Notes: generated from the sequence alone by a model not told the origin. Numbered from the stretch's first letter, positions 5,553 through 59,425 are shown. The stretch is 64,000 bases of DNA from Parcubacteria group bacterium (GCA_041661275.1 JBAZUU010000004.1:71480-135479), one strand, 5' to 3'. Program-made: numbers and translations.

Positions 5553-6245
5553 ATGAAACATGGTAAAAAGTATCGAGCGGCCTATGAAAAACTGGATCGC
5601 GAAAAAGTTTACAGTTTAGACGAAGCTGTGAAGTTTATGAAGGAAAACAAGATTGCTAAGTTTGATGAATCAGTGGAAGTGCACATCAGAACTAATGTTG
5701 ATACTAAAAAGGGTGACCAGCAAGTGCGCGGAACGGTCAATTTGCCACACGGAACAGGAAAAAACAAGAAGATCGCGGTGATCACCTCAACTGCTGCCAA
5801 AGAGGCGAAAGAAGCCGGAGCGGACATCGTGGGTGGTGAGGAAATGATCGAGAAGATAAAGAGCGGAAAAATGCTGGCAGGGAAAGAAACCTTTGATATT
5901 TTAGTGGCGACTCCCGAGATGATGCCAAAGCTGGCGCAGGTGGCCAAAATTTTGGGACCGAAAGGCCTGATGCCAAATCCAAAAACTGATACAGTAACGA
6001 CCAAGGTCAAGGAGACAGTGGCGGCGCTCAAAAAAGGAAAAGCGGCTTTCAAAAATGATGACTCGGGGAACATTCATCAGATCGTCGGCAAAGTTTCTTT
6101 TGATGATCAAAAATTAGTTGATAATATTAGAACTTTTGTCGAAGCGGTGGAAAAATCAAAACCATCAGGACTGAAAGGAAGACTTATCAGTAATATTACC
6201 GCCTGCTCAACAATGGGAGTGGGATTGAAAATCAGCGTGAAATAA
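5553..6245 (+). CDS. rplA: 50S ribosomal protein L1
   Basis: MKHGKKYRAAYEKLDREKVYSLDEAVKF...VHIRTNVDTKKGDQQVRGTVNLPHGTGK matches L1. The upstream repeat-rich leader could be the L1 autoregulatory site. Confidence 0.9.
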   Translation: MKHGKKYRAAYEKLDREKVYSLDEAVKFMKENKIAKFDESVEVHIRTNVDTKKGDQQVRGTVNLPHGTGKNKKIAVITSTAAKEAKEAGADIVGGEEMIEKIKSGKMLAGKETFDILVATPEMMPKLAQVAKILGPKGLMPNPKTDTVTTKVKETVAALKKGKAAFKNDDSGNIHQIVGKVSFDDQKLVDNIRTFVEAVEKSKPSGLKGRLISNITACSTMGVGLKISVK

Positions 6246-6334
6246 AACTAGATTTGATTTTTTAGCTGAAATATGCTATAATAGATAAAGCGGGTGAAAT
6301 ACCCGTTTTTATTTATTTTTATAAAAGCAATAAT

Positions 6335-6793
6335 ATGGCTATACGTATAGGAACAAATTTACCCAAAGGAACAGTGGCCGATGGCAAATCTTTAGGTTTT
6401 GATCCAAAGCGCAGTAAATTTATACAGGGACTTCTAAAAGATAAAGACGCAAGAGGAGCATTGGATAAACCTCAAGAAAGAAAACTGGTTTATGATGCTT
6501 TTAAAAGGCAGATGGGCAAAACTCCCAGAAATATAACCAACAGAGATGTGCGGGCTGTATTAGGAGCTTTTGGAACAGGAGAAATTGACCTGAAGGAAAG
6601 GCAGGCATTAGGAAAGGCGCTTCTTGGCAATGGATCATTTGTAAAGAAATATGATACTATTTCCAAAGAAAAGAAAGATTTTCTTTTAGGAAAAAGCAAC
6701 CCTGTAGTCGATCCTCGCAATGGAAGCTTGTCGACGACTAAACCCGGAAGTTCTTCAGGGAAAAGCGTCACTAGACATTCAGGTTTATTCTAA
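6335..6793 (+). CDS. Hypothetical protein (152 aa, basic, no recognised domain) occupying the position where rplJ is normally found
   Basis: Clean ORF preceded by a terminator and a TGCTATAAT -10 element. No similarity recognised by eye. Confidence 0.4.
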   Translation: MAIRIGTNLPKGTVADGKSLGFDPKRSKFIQGLLKDKDARGALDKPQERKLVYDAFKRQMGKTPRNITNRDVRAVLGAFGTGEIDLKERQALGKALLGNGSFVKKYDTISKEKKDFLLGKSNPVVDPRNGSLSTTKPGSSSGKSVTRHSGLF

Positions 6794-13917: not shown

Positions 13918-14925
13918 TTATTTTTTCAAAAATTTATTTATTTCCGATTCTGTCTTTTTATACTCGTCAATCCATTTTATACGCGTATCTTTTCTGAACC
14001 ACGTCATCTGCCGTTTGGCATAGTCTTTTTCAGCTCGGAGTATTTTTTGAAATAGTTCCTCCTTGGTTGCGATCTCACCTCTGAGATACTTAGGAATCAA
14101 AAAGTATCCAAGACCAAAGCTTTCTATTTTTTTCCAGGACAGTTTTTCTTTGGAATGTAAATTTTCCACTTCCCTTATCATTCCTTTCGCGAATCTTTTT
14201 CGAAGACGTTTTTCAATGTTTTGGTGGAGTTTTTCTTTGGGGAGATTGATGCCGATCTGGAGAAAGTTATAATTACGTGGTTTTAATTTAGAACCCTCTC
14301 CTGTCGCGAAGACGCGACATCCTCTCCCGAGGGGAGAGGAGGAATTTCTTCTTCCACCCTCTCCCTTCGGGAGAGGGTCATTCGACGAAGTCGAATGGGG
14401 AGAGGGAACCTTACCTAACGTCTTACAAATTTCTATGGCTCTTATTAACCGTACTTTGTTTTTGGCGTCAATACTTTTGGCTCGCTGGGGATCTAGTTTT
14501 TTTAGCATTGTGAATAATTTTTCCGCCGAATAATTACGTAAATAATTACGTAATTTCCAATCAGGTTTTACTTCCGGGTAGATTACATTATCAACAATGG
14601 CTTTTATCCAAAAGCCAGTGCCTCCACAGATAATGGGCAATTTCCCACGTTTCAGGATATCCTTAATAATCTTTTCGGCATCTTTTTTAAATTTAGCGGC
14701 GTTGTAATTTGTTCGCGGACTGACGATATCAATCATATAATGTTTAGCTAGCTTCTGTTCAGCTTTAGTAATCTTACCTGTTCCAATATCCAGTCCGCGA
14801 TAGATTTGTCTTGAGTCAGCGGAAATAATTTCACCGTTGAATTTTTTGGCAAGTCGAATTGCCACATCCGATTTTCCGGAAGATGTGGAGCCGAGGATGA
14901 CGATTATCTTATTATTTCCTTCCAT
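13918..14925 (-). CDS. miaA: tRNA dimethylallyltransferase MiaA carrying in-frame palindromic insertions
   Basis: IIVILGSTSSGKSDVAIRLAKKFNGEIISADSRQIY P-loop. ~38 aa (PSPHSTSSNDPLPKGEGGRRNSSSPLGRGCRVFATGEG) derive from the palindromic repeat at 14294-14406. Confidence 0.85.
   Translation of the reverse strand: MEGNNKIIVILGSTSSGKSDVAIRLAKKFNGEIISADSRQIYRGLDIGTGKITKAEQKLAKHYMIDIVSPRTNYNAAKFKKDAEKIIKDILKRGKLPIICGGTGFWIKAIVDNVIYPEVKPDWKLRNYLRNYSAEKLFTMLKKLDPQRAKSIDAKNKVRLIRAIEICKTLGKVPSPHSTSSNDPLPKGEGGRRNSSSPLGRGCRVFATGEGSKLKPRNYNFLQIGINLPKEKLHQNIEKRLRKRFAKGMIREVENLHSKEKLSWKKIESFGLGYFLIPKYLRGEIATKEELFQKILRAEKDYAKRQMTWFRKDTRIKWIDEYKKTESEINKFLKK
14294..14406. repeat. Family-B palindromic element (two tandem CCCTCTCC...GGGAGAGG hairpins) inside the miaA CDS
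   Basis: ccctctcctgtcgcgaagacgcgacatcctctcccgaggggagagg + ccaccctctcccttcgggagagggtcattcgacgaagtcgaatggggagaggg. Related copies at 24565-24625 and 54688-54739. Confidence 0.6.
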
Positions 14926-16159
14926 ATCTTATTAACTCTCTTAAGACTTTTTCTCTCCTTTTCTTTTCCGGCAAATCGACCGTTTCTTTCATCTTCCACG
15001 CGGCAGTATCGGGGCGGGGAGAATATTTATTGATATATGCTTCATTGTAGCTGACAGTTTTGAAAACTTTTATTGACTCGGAGAAATCCTTTTTGGCTTC
15101 ACCCGGGAAGCCGACGATTATGTCAGTAGTAAATTCGGCTTCTGGAATTATTTTTTTTATCTTTTTAATGAGATTCAGATAATACTTTTGCGTGTATGGT
15201 CGGTTCATGGCCTTGAGAATCTTGTCGCTTCCAGCCTGGACAGGCAAATGGATCTCTCGGGAAATATTTTTGTTTTTGGCAATAACTTTTATCAGTTCGT
15301 TAGAAAAATCTTTGGGGTGAGAGGTTAAAAACTTGAAGCGAATTTGAGGGTTTGATTTGGCAAGGTAATCCAAGAGTTTCGGAAAGTCTACAGTGACAGA
15401 ATTTTTAATTTTTAATTTTAAATTTTTAATCAATTTTAAATTTCCTAATTTTGAATTTTTAAACTCATAGTTATAACTATTAACGTTCTGTCCGAGAAGA
15501 GTTATTTCTTTGCAGTCATTTTTTGTCAGCGATTTTATTTCTTTGATAATATCTTCTACGGGTCTCGAAATCTCTCTACCTCTGGCGTAGGGGACGACGC
15601 AATAGGAGCAGAAGTTGTTACAGCCGGTCATTATCGGCACGTACACTTTATTGTTGTTAATGTATTTTGGAATAATATCCAAATAAGAACCGTCATTCTG
15701 AGCGGAATGACCCCGCCCTTGGCGGGGGAATGTAGCCGAAGAATCTGCCTTTTGGGTTTTCTGGTTATATTTTTTAGTAGATCCTTCGACTACGTTCCGA
15801 TAAGAATCGGAACTTCGCTCAGGATGACGGACTAAGAGAGGTTTTAATTTTTCCGGAAAATTATTTATATTACAGAATAAATCAACCTTATCTTCTAATC
15901 TTCTTTGCACGTCTTTTCTGTCGGCAAGGCAGCCGGTGAGGATGATAGTAATTTTTGGGTTTGATTTTCGTAGATTATGCACAAGTCCATAAACCCTATT
16001 TTCCGCCGACTGACGCACGCCGCAAGTATTGAAAATCACCAAGTTGGCCTGGTTTATATCTTTGGTTGGTTTAATTCTATGCGTTTCTAGAAACCCAGCA
16101 ATTCGCTCGGAATCGCTTTCATTCATTTGACAGCCGAAAGTTTTGATGTAATATTTCAT
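14912..16159 (-). CDS. miaB: tRNA-i6A37 methylthiotransferase MiaB carrying an in-frame MITE insertion
   Basis: MKYYIKTFGCQMNESDSERIAG MTTase N-terminus and radical SAM GCNNFCSYC. A 47-codon insert (15690-15830) is the family-A repeat. Confidence 0.85.
   Translation of the reverse strand: MKYYIKTFGCQMNESDSERIAGFLETHRIKPTKDINQANLVIFNTCGVRQSAENRVYGLVHNLRKSNPKITIILTGCLADRKDVQRRLEDKVDLFCNINNFPEKLKPLLVRHPERSSDSYRNVVEGSTKKYNQKTQKADSSATFPRQGRGHSAQNDGSYLDIIPKYINNNKVYVPIMTGCNNFCSYCVVPYARGREISRPVEDIIKEIKSLTKNDCKEITLLGQNVNSYNYEFKNSKLGNLKLIKNLKLKIKNSVTVDFPKLLDYLAKSNPQIRFKFLTSHPKDFSNELIKVIAKNKNISREIHLPVQAGSDKILKAMNRPYTQKYYLNLIKKIKKIIPEAEFTTDIIVGFPGEAKKDFSESIKVFKTVSYNEAYINKYSPRPDTAAWKMKETVDLPEKKRREKVLRELIRYGRK
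15690..15830. repeat. Family-A MITE-like nested-hairpin repeat, copy 1 (141 bp, inside miaB CDS, in frame)
   Basis: ccgtcattctgagcggaatga...gaagaatctgcc...agatccttcgactacgttcc...cgctcaggatgacgg. Both the outer and the inner inverted repeats are present. Confidence 0.7.
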
Positions 16160-16224
16160 AGAAGTTCTTGTGGGTAAAGTGGTATCCATTAGGATACTAA
16201 AATATTAACGAATTATCAAGGAGG

Positions 16225-20460: not shown

Positions 20461-20707
20461 TTCTTTATTTTAAGGGAGGACACCAATATGAAACAATTCG
20501 GGAGCAGGCAGTTGTCTGCTCCTTTTTATTTTCAAATCCACAAATTTATGGTATAATTTAGGTAATTCATCCCCCACCACTTTTTCGCTTTTTTTTATTT
20601 AACTCTTGTCAATCTTATTTAATAAATTAGTAATTTATTAAAATTTTATCACTTTCTTTTCGCGCTTTCGCGCAAGAGAAAAAGTGGTAGGGGATAAAAA
20701 TAAAACA

Positions 20708-21667: not shown

Positions 21668-21845
21668 TCAGGGTGTAAACTTTTGCGTTCGTCTCTGTCG
21701 ATACGCGCTTCGGCGCGATAATATTTTAGAATACTTAATCCCGACAGTATAGCAAGGTTGATCTATATCGGAAAATGCTAAGCGCCTACGAAAGCGTCTC
21801 TCCATAGCCAAACGCAAAAGTTTAAGAAATATAAATAAAAATAAC

Positions 21846-27903: not shown

Positions 27904-28033
27904 CCGTCATTCCGAGCGAGCACGAATGAAATGAAGTGCGAGTCGAGGAATCTGCCAAATGGGTTTACTAGTAATATTATTAAGTAGATCTCTCGACTCG
28001 CTCTCCCTATGGTCGAGCTCGCTCGAGATGACG
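27904..28033. repeat. Family-A MITE-like repeat, copy 2 (diverged)
   Basis: ccgtcattccgagcgagcacgaatgaaatgaagtgcgagtcgaggaatctgccaaat...agatctctcgactcgctc...gctcgagatgacg. Confidence 0.6.
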
Positions 28034-28452
28034 ATAAAATTGGAAATAATAAAAACCACCTGTTAAAGTAGTCTAAAAAAATTTCTCTGAATAATATATT
28101 ACCACCATACTTTTTTTATCCTCATAGCCCAGGTTGCCCTTTGGGATTTGCAGGATAGTTATGGATATATAGTAGCATACAATATTATAACAAAAAAGAC
28201 CCGGGTTTACCGGTCTTCTTTTTTGCTTTTTATTTTTCTCGAGATTTGTTGTTTTTTCTAAATCTATCTCTCATGATAAGATAGATTGAGAAATAATAAC
28301 CAAAGAACTTTACGAACCCCGCACTAATTCCGAGTAAAATATAATAAACATATAATTTTTACCACGGAATCGCCTGCGGCTTAAAATCGGATAACTTCAA
28401 AGTCTATTTCTTGAATTAGTGCGGGGCAGGCACCATATTATTTTACTACTGT

Positions 28453-29157
28453 ATGAAAAAACAGTCAATATCAAAAATACTAAAAACTGAACAAAAATAT
28501 CTGGACAATGGATACGATTTTGTTATTGGCATAGATGAGGCAGGACGGGGGCCGTTGGCGGGGCCAGTAGTGGCTTGCGCGGTTTGTTATAGGAATGGAG
28601 GCTCGGCCTCCATTATGGAGGCCGAGCCTCCAAAGCGATTTGAGTCAATAAAGGATAGTAAAAAGCTTTCTGAAAAGCAGCGGGAAGAATTATATGATTT
28701 TATACACGAGCATTTCCATGTCGGTATTGGAATCTGTGACCACAAAACAATCGATAGGATAAATATTTTGGAAGCGACGTATCTTTCTATGAAAAAAGCG
28801 CTTACCTTCCTAACATCCGATGTTAGGATGAATAAGATGATAGTGTTGGTCGATGGCAATAAAGTTATTCCCAATTGCAGTTATGAACAAAAAGCGATTG
28901 TTAACGGCGACAATATTGTGAAATCAATTTCGGCGGCTTCGATCATTGCCAAAGTGACGCGGGATCGGATGATGAAAAAAATGCACGATAAATATCCGAA
29001 GTATAATTTTGCTTCTCATAAGGGATATGGGACGAAATTGCATATGGAAATGATAAAAAAGCATGGAGCTTGTGAGATACATAGGAAGAGCTTTAGACCC
29101 TGCAATCTTAAGAGAGTCTCTTCTGCCCGTCATTCTGAGCGGAATCGAGTCCGTTAG
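28453..29157 (+). CDS. rnhB: Ribonuclease HII (C-terminus extended by read-through into a MITE copy; internal in-frame palindrome)
   Basis: FVIGIDEAGRGPLAGPVVACAV catalytic motif. An internal NGGSASIMEAEPPK segment is encoded by the perfect palindrome at 28597-28635. The last ~12 aa (ARHSERNRVR) come from the repeat at 29127. Confidence 0.85.
   Translation: MKKQSISKILKTEQKYLDNGYDFVIGIDEAGRGPLAGPVVACAVCYRNGGSASIMEAEPPKRFESIKDSKKLSEKQREELYDFIHEHFHVGIGICDHKTIDRINILEATYLSMKKALTFLTSDVRMNKMIVLVDGNKVIPNCSYEQKAIVNGDNIVKSISAASIIAKVTRDRMMKKMHDKYPKYNFASHKGYGTKLHMEMIKKHGACEIHRKSFRPCNLKRVSSARHSERNRVR
28597..28635. repeat. Perfect 15-bp-stem palindrome inside the rnhB CDS
   Basis: ggaggctcggcctcc attat ggaggccgagcctcc. 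Confidence 0.6.
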
Positions 29158-29263
29158 GACGAGATGAAGTCGAAGAATCTGCCAAATAATATTACTAGTG
29201 GTATTTTTGAGTAGATCCTTCGACTTCGTTCGGATAAAATCCTCACTACGCTCAGGATGACGG
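29127..29263. repeat. Family-A MITE-like repeat, copy 3 (overlaps the 3' end of rnhB)
   Basis: ccgtcattctgagcggaatcgagtccgttaggacgagatgaagtcgaagaatctgccaaat...agatccttcgacttcgttcgg...cgctcaggatgacgg. Confidence 0.7.
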
Positions 29264-30906: not shown

Positions 30907-31020
30907 CTCTTTACTAATTACTAATTTTGTACGAATATACCAATTACGAATAAAAAATTAGTATATTAGTATGAGAATCGTAATTAGTAAAGATTTATCT
31001 AATTATAAATCACTAAATGT

Positions 31021-32184: not shown

Positions 32185-35110
32185 GAAGATTGATCCTAAA
32201 ATGAATCTTCCAAAGATGGAGGAAGACGTTTTGAAATTTTGGGAGGAAAATAAAATATTTGAAAAGTCTTTAGAGAATAGAAAGGATGCGCCTTTGTATT
32301 CTTTTTATGATGGACCACCATTTGCCACTGGCCTTCCGCATCACGGGCATCTTTTAGCTTCAACCTCAAAAGATGTTGTTCCTCGCTTTTGGACAATGAA
32401 GGGATATAATGTTCCGCGAAGATGGGGATGGGATACCCACGGTTTGCCAATCGAAAATATTGTCGAGAAAAAATTAGGTTATAAGGGCAAGAAAGAAATC
32501 GAGGAAAATATTTCTAAATTTAATGAAGAAGCAAAAAACACAGTTCTTCAATTTGCCGATGAGTGGAAAAAAACTATCCGAAGAATTGGACGTTGGGTGG
32601 ATTTTGATAATTCCTATAAAACCATGGATTCAACTTTTATGGAATCAGTTTGGTGGGGGTTTAAGGAGTTGGATAAAAAAGGACTGGTTTATAAGGATTC
32701 AAGAATTTCGTTATACTGTCCGCATTGTGCTACACCACTTTCTAATTTCGAGATTGCTATGGACAATTCCTACAAGATGGATAAAGATGTTTCGATTTAT
32801 GTGAAAATTGGCTTAAAAGATAATCCAGGAACTTACTTTTTAGTCTGGACAACAACTCCCTGGACACTGTTAGCTAATGTTGCACTCGCTGTTGGAGAAA
32901 AAATAAAATATGTAGAAGTAAGATATGACAAAGAAAAATATATTATAGCCAAAGACCTTATAGATAAAGTAATTCCGGAAGATGATTATGAACTTATCAG
33001 CGAGTTTGATGGAAAGGATCTGATTGGAAAGGAATATGATCCGATTTTTCCTCATAATATCGAAAATGGGTACCGTGTGGTGGCGGGAGATTTTGTGAAT
33101 ATTGAAGATGGAACAGGGATAGTTCATTTAGCGCCAGCTTATGGGGAAGATGACTTTCAAGCGAGAAAGAAAAATAACTTGCCTCTAATTGAAAATGTTG
33201 ACGATGAAGGGCAATTCACGGAAGGGCAGTGGAAAGGAATGAATGTTTGGGATGCTAATTTTAAGGTTGTTGGGTATATCCATGAAAAAGGATTGTTATT
33301 CAAAAAAGAAAACATCACTCACTCTTATCCACATTGCTATCGATGTGACGCGAAATTAATTTATAAGGCTCAACCAGCCTGGTTTATAAAAGTATCAGAG
33401 TTTAAAGATGAGTTGATAAGCGAAAACGAAAATATTAACTGGCATCCAGAACATTTGAAACATGGAAGATTTTTGAACGGCTTGGAAAACGCGCCAGATT
33501 GGAATGTTTCACGCTCCCGATATTGGGGAAACCCGATGCCTATTTGGGAATGTGAAAAATGTAAAGAAATAGAAATTGTTGGATCATACGATGAGCTGGA
33601 AAAACTTTCTGGAAAAAAGCTCGATGATTATCACAGGCCATTTATTGACGAGATAACTTTTGACTGTGAAAAATGCAAAGGCAAGATGAAAAGAGTTTTA
33701 GATGTGTTTGATTGTTGGGTAGAATCAGGATCGATGCCTTTTGCAGAATTTCATTATCCTTTCGAAAACAAAGAGATATTTGAAAAAAGATTTCCGGCAC
33801 AATTTATATCCGAATATATCGCCCAGACGCGAGGCTGGTTTTATACTCTTCACGTTTTGTCGGTCGGACTTTTTGAAAAACCCAGTTTTATAAACGCAGT
33901 AACGACCGGGACGATTGCTGGAAGCGACGGAAAAAAAATGTCAAAGTCGCAAGGAAATTTTACTGATCCTAATGTCCTTCTTGATAAATATGGAGCAGAT
34001 TCTTTCAGATTTTATTTGATGCAATCTTCTCTTATGGAAGGGGAGAATCTAAATTTTCTCGATAAAGATCTGGAAGCTATCTTTAAAGGAATGTTTCGCA
34101 TGATGTGGAATTCATATTCGTTTTTTGTGCTTTATGCCAACGTCGACAAATGGAATCCTGATCCTAAAACCGGGTTTTGGGATGAATCCCAAAACCCGGT
34201 TTTAGGAAGCCGAAATATTTTAGACCGCTGGATAGTTTCTGAATTACAAACGCTCATTAAAGATGTTAATGAAAATATGGAAAATTATGAGTTGACCAGA
34301 GCAGCGAGGCTGTTTCCAAAATTTATCGACAATCTTTCCAATTGGTATATCAGGCGTTCCAGAAGGAGATTTTGGAAGTCGGAGTCCGACTCCGATAAAA
34401 AAGAAGCCTATGAAACTTTGCATTATGTTTTGGTGACGCTTTCAAAACTGATGGCGCCATTCACGCCGTTCATCGCGGAGGAGATATTTCGGAATTTATC
34501 AGACGCAGGGAACAAAAATTTTTGTTCCGTACACCTCCAGGATTTTCCGGTGGCCGATGAAAAATTGATTGATGAAAAATTAAATGAAGAGATGGCAAAA
34601 GTGAGAGACATTATCACACAAGGCTTGCAACTTCGCGCGATGGCGAAAATAAAAGTCAGACAGCCATTGGAAAAATTTTTGATTGCCAATTTGGAGCTTT
34701 CTCATAAAGAACTTTTGGAAATCATCCGTGAAGAAATGAATGTGAAGAAGGTTGAGATGGTGGAAAAAGTCAAAGAAGGGGAAAGCTGGATAATCGGGGA
34801 GATTGGGGAAATTAGCGTTGGTTTAAATATTGAGATCACCGAAGAACTTAGGCTGGAAGGTGTGGCGCGGGAGATAATCCGGCATATTCAGGAGATGCGA
34901 AAAGAGGCCGGGTATGATGTTGACAACCGGATAAAAGTATGCTATGCTGGTTGGTCAGTGGTTTTCGAGAAATTTGGCGATCTGATCGCCAAGGAAACTC
35001 TGGCTGATTCTTTACAAAATAATAAACCGGATCAATCCGATCTGGAAAAGGAATTTAATATTGAGGGGGAAAAAGTTCTTATTTATATAAAACGAACCAA
35101 AAATACATAA
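32177..35110 (+). CDS. ileS: Isoleucyl-tRNA synthetase
   Basis: PPFATGLPHHGHL (HIGH), KMSKSQGN (KMSKS), CP1 editing domain and zinc-finger C-terminus. The ATG overlaps the stop of the GT4 gene (ATGTATAA). Confidence 0.9.
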   Translation: MYKKIDPKMNLPKMEEDVLKFWEENKIFEKSLENRKDAPLYSFYDGPPFATGLPHHGHLLASTSKDVVPRFWTMKGYNVPRRWGWDTHGLPIENIVEKKLGYKGKKEIEENISKFNEEAKNTVLQFADEWKKTIRRIGRWVDFDNSYKTMDSTFMESVWWGFKELDKKGLVYKDSRISLYCPHCATPLSNFEIAMDNSYKMDKDVSIYVKIGLKDNPGTYFLVWTTTPWTLLANVALAVGEKIKYVEVRYDKEKYIIAKDLIDKVIPEDDYELISEFDGKDLIGKEYDPIFPHNIENGYRVVAGDFVNIEDGTGIVHLAPAYGEDDFQARKKNNLPLIENVDDEGQFTEGQWKGMNVWDANFKVVGYIHEKGLLFKKENITHSYPHCYRCDAKLIYKAQPAWFIKVSEFKDELISENENINWHPEHLKHGRFLNGLENAPDWNVSRSRYWGNPMPIWECEKCKEIEIVGSYDELEKLSGKKLDDYHRPFIDEITFDCEKCKGKMKRVLDVFDCWVESGSMPFAEFHYPFENKEIFEKRFPAQFISEYIAQTRGWFYTLHVLSVGLFEKPSFINAVTTGTIAGSDGKKMSKSQGNFTDPNVLLDKYGADSFRFYLMQSSLMEGENLNFLDKDLEAIFKGMFRMMWNSYSFFVLYANVDKWNPDPKTGFWDESQNPVLGSRNILDRWIVSELQTLIKDVNENMENYELTRAARLFPKFIDNLSNWYIRRSRRRFWKSESDSDKKEAYETLHYVLVTLSKLMAPFTPFIAEEIFRNLSDAGNKNFCSVHLQDFPVADEKLIDEKLNEEMAKVRDIITQGLQLRAMAKIKVRQPLEKFLIANLELSHKELLEIIREEMNVKKVEMVEKVKEGESWIIGEIGEISVGLNIEITEELRLEGVAREIIRHIQEMRKEAGYDVDNRIKVCYAGWSVVFEKFGDLIAKETLADSLQNNKPDQSDLEKEFNIEGEKVLIYIKRTKNT

Positions 35111-46942: not shown

Positions 46943-47079
46943 CCGTCATCCTGAGCGAAGTCCAATTCTTATTGGACGTAGTCGAAGGATCTGCTTGCTA
47001 ATAGCACGAGTAGTATTAATTAGTAGATTCTTCGACTGCATTCTCCCGCTTCGCGGGATCATTCCGCTCAGAATGACGG
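46943..47079. repeat. Family-A MITE-like repeat, copy 4 (inverted orientation)
   Basis: ccgtcatcctgagcgaagtccaattcttattggacgtagtcgaaggatctgc...agattcttcgactgcattctcccgcttcgcgggatcattccgctcagaatgacgg. Confidence 0.7.
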
Positions 47080-54382: not shown

Positions 54383-54525
54383 CCGTCATTCTGAGCGGAA
54401 TCGAGTCCGTTTAGGACGAGATGAAGTCGAAGAATCTACTTTATGGCTAAACCAGGCAATATTATTGAGTAGATCCTTCGACTGCGTTCTTCCGCTAACG
54501 CGGAATCACTTCGCTCAGGATGACG
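54383..54525. repeat. Family-A MITE-like repeat, copy 5
   Basis: ccgtcattctgagcggaatcgagtccgtttaggacgagatgaagtcgaagaatct...agatccttcgactgcgttcttccgctaacgcggaatcacttcgctcaggatgacg. Confidence 0.7.
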
Positions 54526-54687
54526 AGCTTATATGGTCCAGTGTAAAACCTCGTTAAATGGCTTAACAAAAATAATTTTTAAACTTATCCACCACACTAA
54601 TTATTATAGAGCCTACTTTTCTTGCCAATTGAGCCAAAATATAGTAGGCTGAAGTGTGGTATTATTAATATAACCAACAATAATGTG

Positions 54688-58537: not shown

Positions 58538-58545
58538 AAAATAGT

Positions 58546-58682
58546 CGTCATTCTGAGCGGAATCGAGTCCGTTTAGGACGAGATGCAGTCGAAGAATCTG
58601 CCAAATATTAGCACTAGTGATAATTTATAGCAGATCCTTCGACTACGTCCAATAAGAATTGGACTTCGCTCAGGATGACGGT
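58546..58682. repeat. Family-A MITE-like repeat, copy 6
   Basis: tcgtcattctgagcggaatcgagtccgtttaggacgagatgcagtcgaagaatctgccaaat...agatccttcgactacgtccaataagaattggacttcgctcaggatgacgg. Confidence 0.7.
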
Positions 58683-58723: not shown

Positions 58724-59425
58724 ATGCATACTGGTATATTATACATCGTCGCGACACCTATTGGCAACTTGGAGGATATCACATTCAGGGCTGTTTGGAC
58801 TTTAAAAGAGGTCGATTTAATTTTTTGTGAGGATACGCGGGTAACAAAAAGACTTCTAGATAAATATAATATTACTGCTGAAACAAGATCTTTCTATAAA
58901 TCCAGTGGAAGCGGCGCGCGAAAGCCGCAAGCCAATTTTGAATATATCTTGTCGGAGCTCGGCTCCGGTAAAGATGTGGCTTTTGTCACAGATGCCGGAA
59001 CACCAGGAATATCTGATCCGGGGAATACGCTCGCGGAAAAAGTTCTGGCCGAAGGTTTTGCTGTTATGCCAATCCCAGGAGTTTCCGCTCTCACGACTCT
59101 CGTGTCTGTTTCTGGAATTGATCTGACCCAATTTGTATTTTTAGGTTTTCCACCGCATAAAAAAGGCCGGGAAACATATTTCAAAAAATTATTGTCGTAT
59201 GATATTCCGGTGATATATTATGAATCCCCGCATCGATTGATAAAAAATTTAGAATTATTATCTGTCATTGCGAGCGAAGCGAAACAATCTCGTAACATTA
59301 TTTTGGGTCGCGAACTGACAAAAATGTTCGAAGAAGTCATTCGCGGCAGCGCGGAAGATATTTTGAGATATTTTGAGGAAAATAAGGGAAAAGTGAAGGG
59401 AGAGTTTGTAATTATTGTTTATTAA
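58724..59425 (+). CDS. rsmI: 16S rRNA (cytidine1402-2'-O)-methyltransferase RsmI
   Basis: GILYIVATPIGNLEDITFRAVWTLKEVDLIFCEDTR matches the tetrapyrrole-methylase-fold RsmI family. Confidence 0.85.
   Translation: MHTGILYIVATPIGNLEDITFRAVWTLKEVDLIFCEDTRVTKRLLDKYNITAETRSFYKSSGSGARKPQANFEYILSELGSGKDVAFVTDAGTPGISDPGNTLAEKVLAEGFAVMPIPGVSALTTLVSVSGIDLTQFVFLGFPPHKKGRETYFKKLLSYDIPVIYYESPHRLIKNLELLSVIASEAKQSRNIILGRELTKMFEEVIRGSAEDILRYFEENKGKVKGEFVIIVY

Follow-up and report, generated by a model that had tools for sequence, protein, structure and literature searches.

The question raised by this locus is how a palindromic repeat comes to lie in frame inside the gene miaB of a Parcubacteria group bacterium, and whether it is read there as part of the protein. 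In-frame palindromic repeats have long been proposed as a route to new protein loops, and the documented cases come mostly from Rickettsia. The repeat was found in a stretch of 64,000 nt (GCA_041661275.1 JBAZUU010000004.1:71480-135479), which is called the window below and from whose first nucleotide all positions are counted. It had been predicted from the sequence alone to be a copy of a MITE (miniature inverted-repeat transposable element), carried by an essential enzyme in the manner of Rickettsia palindromic elements (RPEs). This interpretation was supported by the present analysis, although its label and emphasis had to be corrected: by its sequence marks, the element is a head-to-head dimer of CGTC-tagged repetitive extragenic palindromic (REP) units, which is probably translated as a disordered, tolerated loop of MiaB and kept open by selection on MiaB.

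The presence of a repeat-family copy at 15690-15830, within an uninterrupted miaB open reading frame (ORF), was confirmed. Six full copies of one family (family A) were located in the window (Table 1), with a mean column identity of 77%, and the terminal motif CGTCATYCTGAGCG (at most one mismatch) occurred 11 times, against 0.00 occurrences expected from 100 shuffles. The identity of the miaB copy to the intergenic copies c3-c6 was 76-79%. All copies tested were folded as a four-way junction (one outer stem, a pair of side hairpins and a stem-loop at the centre) with energies of -65 to -74 kcal/mol and a z of about -9.5, and the side hairpins varied in sequence between copies while their hairpin form was kept. 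The RNA of the miaB copy gave a minimum free energy of -69.8 kcal/mol (z -9.85), and none of 200 shuffled sequences was as stable. From tag to tag the element comprises 139 nt (15691-15829), and one added C/G pair lengthens the palindrome to 141 nt. The miaB copy is the only one in the window that is wholly intragenic; one copy ends rnhB and the others are intergenic.

The miaB ORF is read from the minus strand, the encoded protein begins with MKYYIKTFGCQMN, and the start of the longest ORF is at 16189. All six cluster cysteines of MiaB are present, namely 10/46/77 for the auxiliary cluster and 180/184/187 for the radical-SAM cluster (the CxxxCxxC motif C180/C184/C187). The NCBIfam model of the MiaB/RimO subfamily, TIGR00089, was passed with 355.7 bits (cut-off 251), and the MiaB equivalog model TIGR01574 was scored at 340.6, below its cut-off of 355.3, because the match (profile positions 1-366) ends at position 366 of 437, the protein having no TRAM domain. 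The closest solved relatives were the MiaB structures 7MJV/7MJZ. The stop of miaB overlaps the start of miaA (13918-14925), and the gene order thrS-miaB-miaA was found again in relatives, with conserved miaA synteny. The designation of MiaB as an essential enzyme was not upheld, MiaB being non-essential in model bacteria.

The coding-strand translation across the element, ...LLV-RHPERSSDSYRNVVEGSTKKYNQKTQKADSSATFPRQGRGHSAQND-GSY..., is the one originally given. The insert constitutes residues 111-156 of MiaB and lies, as had been stated, past the N-terminal domain (UPF0004) and ahead of the radical-SAM cluster in the Radical_SAM domain. Of the claimed length of exactly 47 codons, the 141 nt in frame stood and the clean codon count did not: the first base of the copy is the third one of codon 110, and the copy comprises 46 whole codons plus 3 bases. 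The peptides NVVEGSTK and ADSSATFPR and the junction peptide GHSAQNDGSYLDIIPK are predicted from the insert-bearing protein.

For the comparison with orthologs, 39 and then 108 Parcubacteria sequences (55-70% identity) were aligned. The two catalytic domains aligned across them without gaps, and the interdomain stretch was hypervariable. The interval from KVDLF to MTGCNNFC contains 81 residues in the MiaB of the window versus 40-51 in P0009, P0016, P0025, P0042 and P0052, and no repeat was found at the junction in the DNA of the short-linker orthologs P0009 and P0025, as expected of a discrete insertion. The MiaB of Bacteroides uniformis (7MJV) aligned to residues 2-94 and 157-408. In an AlphaFold2 model built from a 109-sequence alignment, the mean predicted local distance difference test (pLDDT) value was 83.5; residues 115-156 scored below 50, and the blocks on either side lay mostly at 86-97. 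The template modelling (TM) score of the model against 7MJZ/7MJV was 0.75. The N-terminal domain has residues 98-110 as its last helix, after which the insert is placed, and residues 115-156 are predicted by the model to form a disordered linker between confident domains. When the insert peptide was searched with phmmer against 1.84 billion representative proteins, the one real relative was another MiaB with the same insert, and a word-index protein search with this peptide gave no match. The insert peptide is therefore not a conserved protein module, and no homologous segment from unrelated orthologs, which would have refuted the prediction, appeared among the phmmer results.

The frame used by the miaB copy (RHPE...EGST...AQND) is hydrophilic, and the sole other stop-free frame is hydrophobic. 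Stops in the frame segment used by miaB are present in copies c3, c5 and c6; the spacer of the intergenic copies contains an in-frame TAG (ACTAGT), and the miaB copy has CAG there. Intergenic copies with a length that is a multiple of three were recorded as 0 of 5 (131, 137, 137, 144 and 137 nt, although 144 is itself divisible by three), and among about 32 further copies from metagenome and genome contigs, one lay in a possible read-through ORF. We infer from these sequences that the insert is translated and is functionally near neutral. In the proposed course of events, a repeat copy would have reached fixation in the linker behind the final helix of the N-terminal methylthiotransferase domain, and the ribosome would read through it in its one hydrophilic stop-free frame. 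About 46 disordered residues would thereby be added between two independently folded domains, with neither iron-sulfur cluster site disturbed, and selection on MiaB would keep the copy open through a frame-preserving length and the absence of the stop codon of the intergenic copies. The repeat itself may spread as a folded single strand via an enzyme acting in trans; the covariation of bases within arms described below points to the folded single strand as the recognised form.

Several points weigh against this reading. The arm hairpin has covariation support and no nearest-neighbour energy support (-2.7 kcal/mol, z -0.2). A structure of about -70 kcal/mol in the middle of an ORF could affect translation or mRNA stability. 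The activity of a MiaB that has no TRAM domain and scores just under the equivalog cut-off is assumed from its sequence. Finally, a palindrome as intact as the intergenic copies, together with the same junction in several lineages, is more than would be predicted by passive tolerance of one old accident.

For the assignment of the element to a class, termini were scanned in one genome per species, with the two termini 95-125 bp apart, and at least 118 loci (L001-L118) were obtained. All loci listed shared CGTCATYCTGAGCG and the inner motif GAAGRATC. In 207 arms, the variable base of ATYCT was paired with the corresponding base of AGRAT in 199 (C-G in 148, T-A in 51) and mismatched in 8. Where the two arms of an element differed, each arm was internally paired in 12 of 16 elements, though the long palindrome was then mismatched. 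In 107 simple (short) arms from many genomes, the NNN triplet after CGTC-AT was fully complementary to the triplet ahead of AT-C in 92, with six triplet types (chance 1/64). The variable bases thus covary within arms and not between arms, and each arm is therefore a selected hairpin, composed of the tag CGTC, the stem AT-NNN, two G.A mismatches and a GC closing a GNA loop. Simple relatives have nine stem positions (five Watson-Crick, two G.A and two Watson-Crick) around the GNA loop, and in the window copies the arm loop is enlarged by a side hairpin of 18-20 nt. The stem is followed (after ...AGRAT) by CTA or CTG in the window copies and by CTC or CCC in relatives, that is, by a C-initial tail and not CCA. 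The CGTC tag heads all 12 arms in the window and is never part of a predicted arm stem; in 6 of 6 window copies the tags face outward, with a 34-nt spacer in the miaB copy.

Table 1. Positions in the window of miaB, of the parts of its repeat element and of the other full copies of the repeat family
Feature	Position	Strand	Description
miaB coding sequence	14912-16159	-	415 aa; Pfam UPF0004 2-87, Radical_SAM 174-364; no TRAM domain
Whole palindromic element in miaB	15690-15830	-	141 nt; head-to-head dimer of two CGTC-tagged hairpin units; encodes R111-D156
Arm 1, REP unit of the coding strand	15780-15829	-	basis: coordinates, within-arm covariation, fold
Arm 1, CGTC tag	15826-15829		
Arm 1, stem half ATCCT	15821-15825		
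Arm 1, stem half AGGAT	15781-15785		
Arm 1, side hairpin	15795-15812		TTCCGATTCTTATCGGAA; enlarges the arm loop
Spacer between units	15746-15779	-	34 nt; unpaired loop; encodes approximately TKKYNQKTQKA
Arm 2, REP unit on the plus strand	15691-15745	+	stem halves ATTCT/AGAAT
Arm 2, CGTC tag	15691-15694		
Arm 2, side hairpin	15711-15727		CCCCGCCCTTGGCGGGG
Copy c2	27904-28034	-	131 nt; between divergently transcribed dnaE and rnhB
Copy c3	29127-29263	-	137 nt; first ~30 nt are final codons and stop of the RNase HII ORF (28453-29157)
Copy c4	46943-47079	+	137 nt; downstream of recO; both side hairpins of the miaB-copy type
Copy c5	54383-54526	-	144 nt; intergenic copy downstream of the gene for a class II aminoacyl-tRNA synthetase
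Copy c6	58545-58681	-	137 nt; intergenic, upstream of an rsmI-like gene

Because each arm has an unpaired CGTC tag and a stem that starts with A-T/T-A, and because the tags point outward, the element is classed from its sequence as a non-autonomous head-to-head dimer of CGTC-tagged REPs, in the superfamily of Rickettsia RPE-4 and RPE-6. The likeness to RPEs that had been proposed was thus borne out: the arms show the defining marks of the CGTC REPs, to which RPE-4 and RPE-6 are assigned in PMC3733652, and since the superfamily includes these two, the analogy holds, probably by homology. Traits of a MITE are present in the terminal inverted repeats, the small size and the lack of coding capacity of its own. 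The 39 copies examined were flanked by no target-site duplication or target motif; all that was seen there was the C...G pair that extends the palindrome. Among the loci examined, which are a limited sample, a search for an autonomous partner, with tagged termini 0.4-5 kb apart and no termini between them, gave none. A Pfam search of ten ORFs adjacent to copies in this 64 kb of genome gave housekeeping genes and no transposase, and a literature text search with the terminal strings returned unrelated primer matches only. The label of a classical MITE is loose, as neither a target-site duplication nor, among these loci, a longer relative with the same termini was seen, and the MITE of the original prediction, for which no transposase-bearing relative was seen, was replaced by the CGTC-REP dimer.

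The insert is not private to the genome of the window. Family-A insert DNA was found in the miaB orthologs P0002, P0003, P0004 and P0022 at the same junction (LLx\|RHPE ... QND\|G-x-YL) and in the same orientation and frame, with lengths of 117, 150, 144 and 81 nt, respectively, and structural z from -7.6 to -1.7. The same family thus occupies the same junction in at least five lineages, that of the window included. Related inserts were also found in P0125, P0113, P0065, P0075 and P0105. The downstream radical-SAM domain is in frame in every insert-bearing ortholog. Across about 120 orthologs the MiaB linker is filled by several repeat families, the others being a TGTC-tagged sister family (VIASxAKQS...LPRNDN; DNA confirmed in P0045), an AT-rich KLKIENxKLKI type and SFPRKRES. 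Judged from these alignments, the MiaB linker is a repeat hotspot in related genomes. Since the family-A insert is shared with the MiaBs of related Parcubacteria, it must be old or recurrent; independent random hits at one codon are very unlikely, which leaves either one old insertion that was later decayed, deleted or replaced, or targeted re-insertion or gene conversion.

Some further observations concern these orthologous loci. In the "empty" linker of P0025 miaB (L124), the insertion point holds a 21-nt perfect palindrome, CTTAGACATCCAATGTCTAAG, which encodes LRHPMSK and may be a remnant after repeat loss; peptides similar to LRHPMSK occur in P0016, P0042 and P0038. A TGTCATCCTGAGC terminus at L122 position 5787 lies inside the miaA ortholog (5611-6591) of the P0022 genome, which hints at another in-frame repeat unit there.

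The recurrence of the insert bears most directly on the possibility that the linker serves repeats as a favoured landing or homing site, in which dimers are re-inserted or a resident copy is overwritten by gene conversion, so that the insert would be young and the repeat mobile. This explanation is regarded as possible and is put forward tentatively. It is consistent with the identity of junction, orientation and frame among the family-A inserts of the window, P0002, P0003, P0004 and P0022, with the further family-A inserts in P0125, P0113, P0065 and P0075, and with the scatter of family-A carriers on a rough neighbour-joining tree, although that tree is crude. The miaB copy of the window is 76-79% identical to the copies of its own genome and 67-71% identical to the copies at the orthologous site; these differences are slight, with conserved modules dominating them, and the comparison is one-sided, the orthologous contigs being too short to include intergenic copies of their own. 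The miaB copy and c4 share both side-hairpin types, and the orthologous inserts have different hairpins. The stems of the window miaB copy are as intact as those of the intergenic copies (z -9.6), whereas those of other lineages have decayed (z -2.9 and -1.7), and in other orthologs the same linker holds other repeat families. Against this, selection restricts frame and orientation in any case, the other open frame being hydrophobic, and no flanking target motif or duplication was found. That the Parcubacteria MiaB linker is a true homing site, at which copies are re-inserted or refreshed from the genome's own active family, is considered doubtful on balance.

A lower probability is given to co-option, by which the insert would benefit a MiaB without TRAM as a flexible or RNA-binding linker, or would act as an mRNA or DNA structure regulating the miaB-miaA operon; this is thought improbable. 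The site stays filled across lineages with 60-70% protein identity, most insert-bearing MiaBs lack TRAM, and the terminal motifs are more conserved than the adjacent linker codons. However, this conservation tracks the repeat DNA modules and not a peptide motif; many orthologs, TRAM-less ones included, have short repeat-free linkers, and the TRAM-containing P0113 and P0105 also carry inserts. Unrelated repeat families take each other's place, so that the site does not require any particular sequence. The net charge per residue of the linker (+0.094) is about equal to that of the rest of the protein (+0.073), and there was no Rfam family match. A basic RNA-binding tail replacing TRAM was ruled out by this equal charge density and by the inserts of TRAM-containing relatives. 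Separately, it was observed that TRAM is missing from most Parcubacteria MiaB relatives, as from the MiaB of the window, and that P0026, P0048, P0051 and P0090 combine MiaB and MiaA domains in one protein of 653-714 aa. These fusions and the stop/start overlap of the two genes raise the possibility that MiaA supplies tRNA binding to TRAM-less MiaB.

That miaB was inactivated by the insertion, or that the segment is left untranslated and its open frame is fortuitous, is very improbable. The very stable structure in mid-ORF and the missing TRAM domain could be read in this way, but conservation across 109 orthologs extends to the six cluster cysteines and to 52 invariant columns, the radical-SAM domain remains in frame downstream of every insert, and a frame-compatible length combined with the absence of stops is rare by chance. 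No intron-like feature was detected in Rfam scans of the whole window (gathering thresholds) or of 15600-15920 (permissive), which returned two tRNAs and chance-level hits only. Native linker sequence, or a misassembly that pasted the repeat into miaB, is hardly credible: beyond the general risk of metagenome assemblies nothing speaks for it, while the window holds five intergenic copies, orthologs without the segment exist, the representative proteins searched contain no homolog of the peptide other than insert-bearing MiaB, and misassembly is unlikely because the identical MiaB protein is recorded in NCBI (two accessions, "Parcubacteria group bacterium"), JGI and ENA assemblies (contigs of 144 kb and 101 kb). 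The translation of the repeat dimer as a tolerated disordered loop of MiaB thus remains the preferred reading.

Other repeats in or near these genes were recorded. A second extra in-frame segment of miaB, at 15400-15462, consists of about nine tandem AATTTTT heptamers (63 nt), encodes KLGNLKLIKNLKLKIKNS and is not present in the Bacteroides MiaB. The site after LGQNVNSY in MiaB is a second hotspot, where other orthologs hold CGTC repeats of the DWIPAFAGMT type or KLKI-type repeats. In miaA (13918-14925, minus strand), an in-frame insert at 14293-14406 comprises about 38 codons of GC-rich hairpins (CCCTCTCCC...GGGAGAGGG and CATTCGAC...GTCGAATG) and is translated as ...DPLPKGEGGRRNSSSPLGRGCRVFATGEG...; it occurs once in the window, and miaA is matched by its NCBIfam model in two stretches, the best one ending at residue 183. 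In the rsmI-like gene (58724-59425, plus strand), one in-frame TGTC-tagged unit of the sister family lies at 59263-59292 (TGTCATTGCGAGCGAAGCGAAACAATC, one mismatch to the consensus) and reads SVIASEAKQS right before the conserved RELTK motif. In rnhB, the last ~10 codons and the stop (29127-29157) come from copy c3, and residue 217 of 234 is the last one covered by the Pfam match. Palindromes unrelated to the family were found at 1366-1560 (97-nt arms), 28596-28632 (perfect 18+18 nt, inside rnhB), 34162-34207 (perfect 22+22 nt), 30908-30993, 20566-20698 and 21676-21824.

By their record titles, the loci listed in the termini scan span at least 12 phyla. Elements with the same termini and inner motif were observed in Verrucomicrobia, Acidobacteria, Hymenobacter, Bifidobacterium vespertilionis, Clostridia, Gamma- and Alphaproteobacteria, and also in Planctomycetes, Nitrospirales, Chloroflexia, Gemmatimonadales, Fimbriimonadales and Patescibacteria. 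In the metagenome sample Ga0224529 (L125-L162, contigs of ~50% GC), the element lies within a longer conserved unit, and the fixed flanks AAAAGGCCGTAAGTC ... GGTTTACACCCTTAA suggest a composite repeat there.

The phenomenon itself is known; new are the host, the wider distribution of the repeat type and the recurrent filling of one linker. The same repeat class would act in a candidate phyla radiation (CPR) bacterium as it does in Rickettsia, and the host range of the CGTC repeat type is widened from five reported phyla to at least 12, CPR included. Across about 120 orthologs, one enzyme linker is found empty, freshly filled, decayed or holding other repeats, and this natural series could be used to measure the speed of insert decay and replacement and to test for targeted insertion. 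For annotation, such repeats explain length variation and odd low-complexity stretches in the MiaB, MiaA and RsmI of CPR bacteria. If homing were true, repeats with no known transposase would be currently mobile in tiny CPR genomes, and the MiaB linker would offer a defined, comparable target for working out the mechanism of insertion.

Among known systems, bacterial MITEs with in-frame copies include ERIC/RU, the pneumococcal BOX/RUP, the Bordetella BRE and the Coxiella MITEs, as reviewed in PMC3184786 (see also PMC5896051). Like these, the element is short, has terminal inverted repeats and a stable fold, and is occasionally fused to or inserted in ORFs; classical MITEs, unlike the window family, have target-site duplications and insertion-sequence termini, neither of which was found here. 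REP doublets forming hairpins (REPINs), which are mobilised by REP-associated tyrosine transposases (RAYTs; Bertels and Rainey 2011, PMC3116915), resemble the element in having two inverted REP hairpins with a short spacer that fold singly or as one long hairpin, in being non-autonomous and in causing no target-site duplication. They differ in being of the GTAG type, with the window tag being CGTC, and in being tied to a REP-flanked RAYT gene; in the examined parts of the window no RAYT-type gene was flanked by copies, the copy-flanked ORFs being rnhB and other housekeeping genes.

RPE-1 was described as a palindromic repeat in protein-coding genes (Ogata et al. 2000, Science 290:347, cited by PMC3184786 and PMC3733652). 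The RPEs share with the miaB insert a palindrome of 100-150 bp in frame in conserved genes, residues thought to lie in loops, and intergenic copies as well. Unlike the RPEs, the element has a free-living or episymbiotic CPR bacterium and not Rickettsia as its host, and the MiaB site is filled in many orthologs by several repeat families. The link of the window element to RPEs is made through the published placement of RPE-4 and RPE-6 in the CGTC REPs and not through an RPE nucleotide consensus.

The closest agreement is with the CGTC-tagged REPs, described in PMC3733652 (Di Nocera, De Gregorio, Rocco 2013, BMC Genomics 14:522). These have an unpaired CGTC (or TGTC/CCTC) at one unit end, a stem of 8-9 bp whose first two positions are complementary A/T, a loop of 4-5 nt with variants in some families, and a three-base tail with the consensus CCA. 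They occur mostly as head-to-head dimers with the tags outside and spacers of 20-100 bp, which are sometimes structured. According to the same paper, intragenic copies exist, no associated transposase or RAYT-like gene is known, the R. conorii CGTC-1 and CGTC-4 correspond to RPE-6 and RPE-4, respectively, the superfamily also holds the Neisseria dRS3, and the repeats are reported in five phyla, CPR not being named there among them. Repeat-encoded peptides in the supplement include SFPRKRES, WIPAFTGMT and CHSRESGNP (CGTC-1, R. conorii) and also DSRFRGND, and the listed peptides match peptides of the CPR MiaBs P0078, P0105, P0008, P0015, P0030, P0039 and P0083. The window element is like the CGTC-tagged REPs in its outer unpaired CGTC tag, A-T/T-A stem start, head-to-head units and a 34-nt spacer within 20-100 bp. 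It is likewise dispersed and mostly intergenic, with some in-frame copies in housekeeping genes, including RNA-modification enzymes, and with no transposase. It is unlike CGTC-1 and CGTC-4, whose stems were back-derived from the published peptides, in the stem ATYCT-GA-GC...GC-GA-AGRAT with its two G.A mismatches. It further differs from the CGTC-tagged REPs in that a side hairpin of 18-20 nt stands in the place of the 3-5-nt loop and gives a four-way junction, in the tail CT/CC versus CCA, and in a host range far wider than five phyla.

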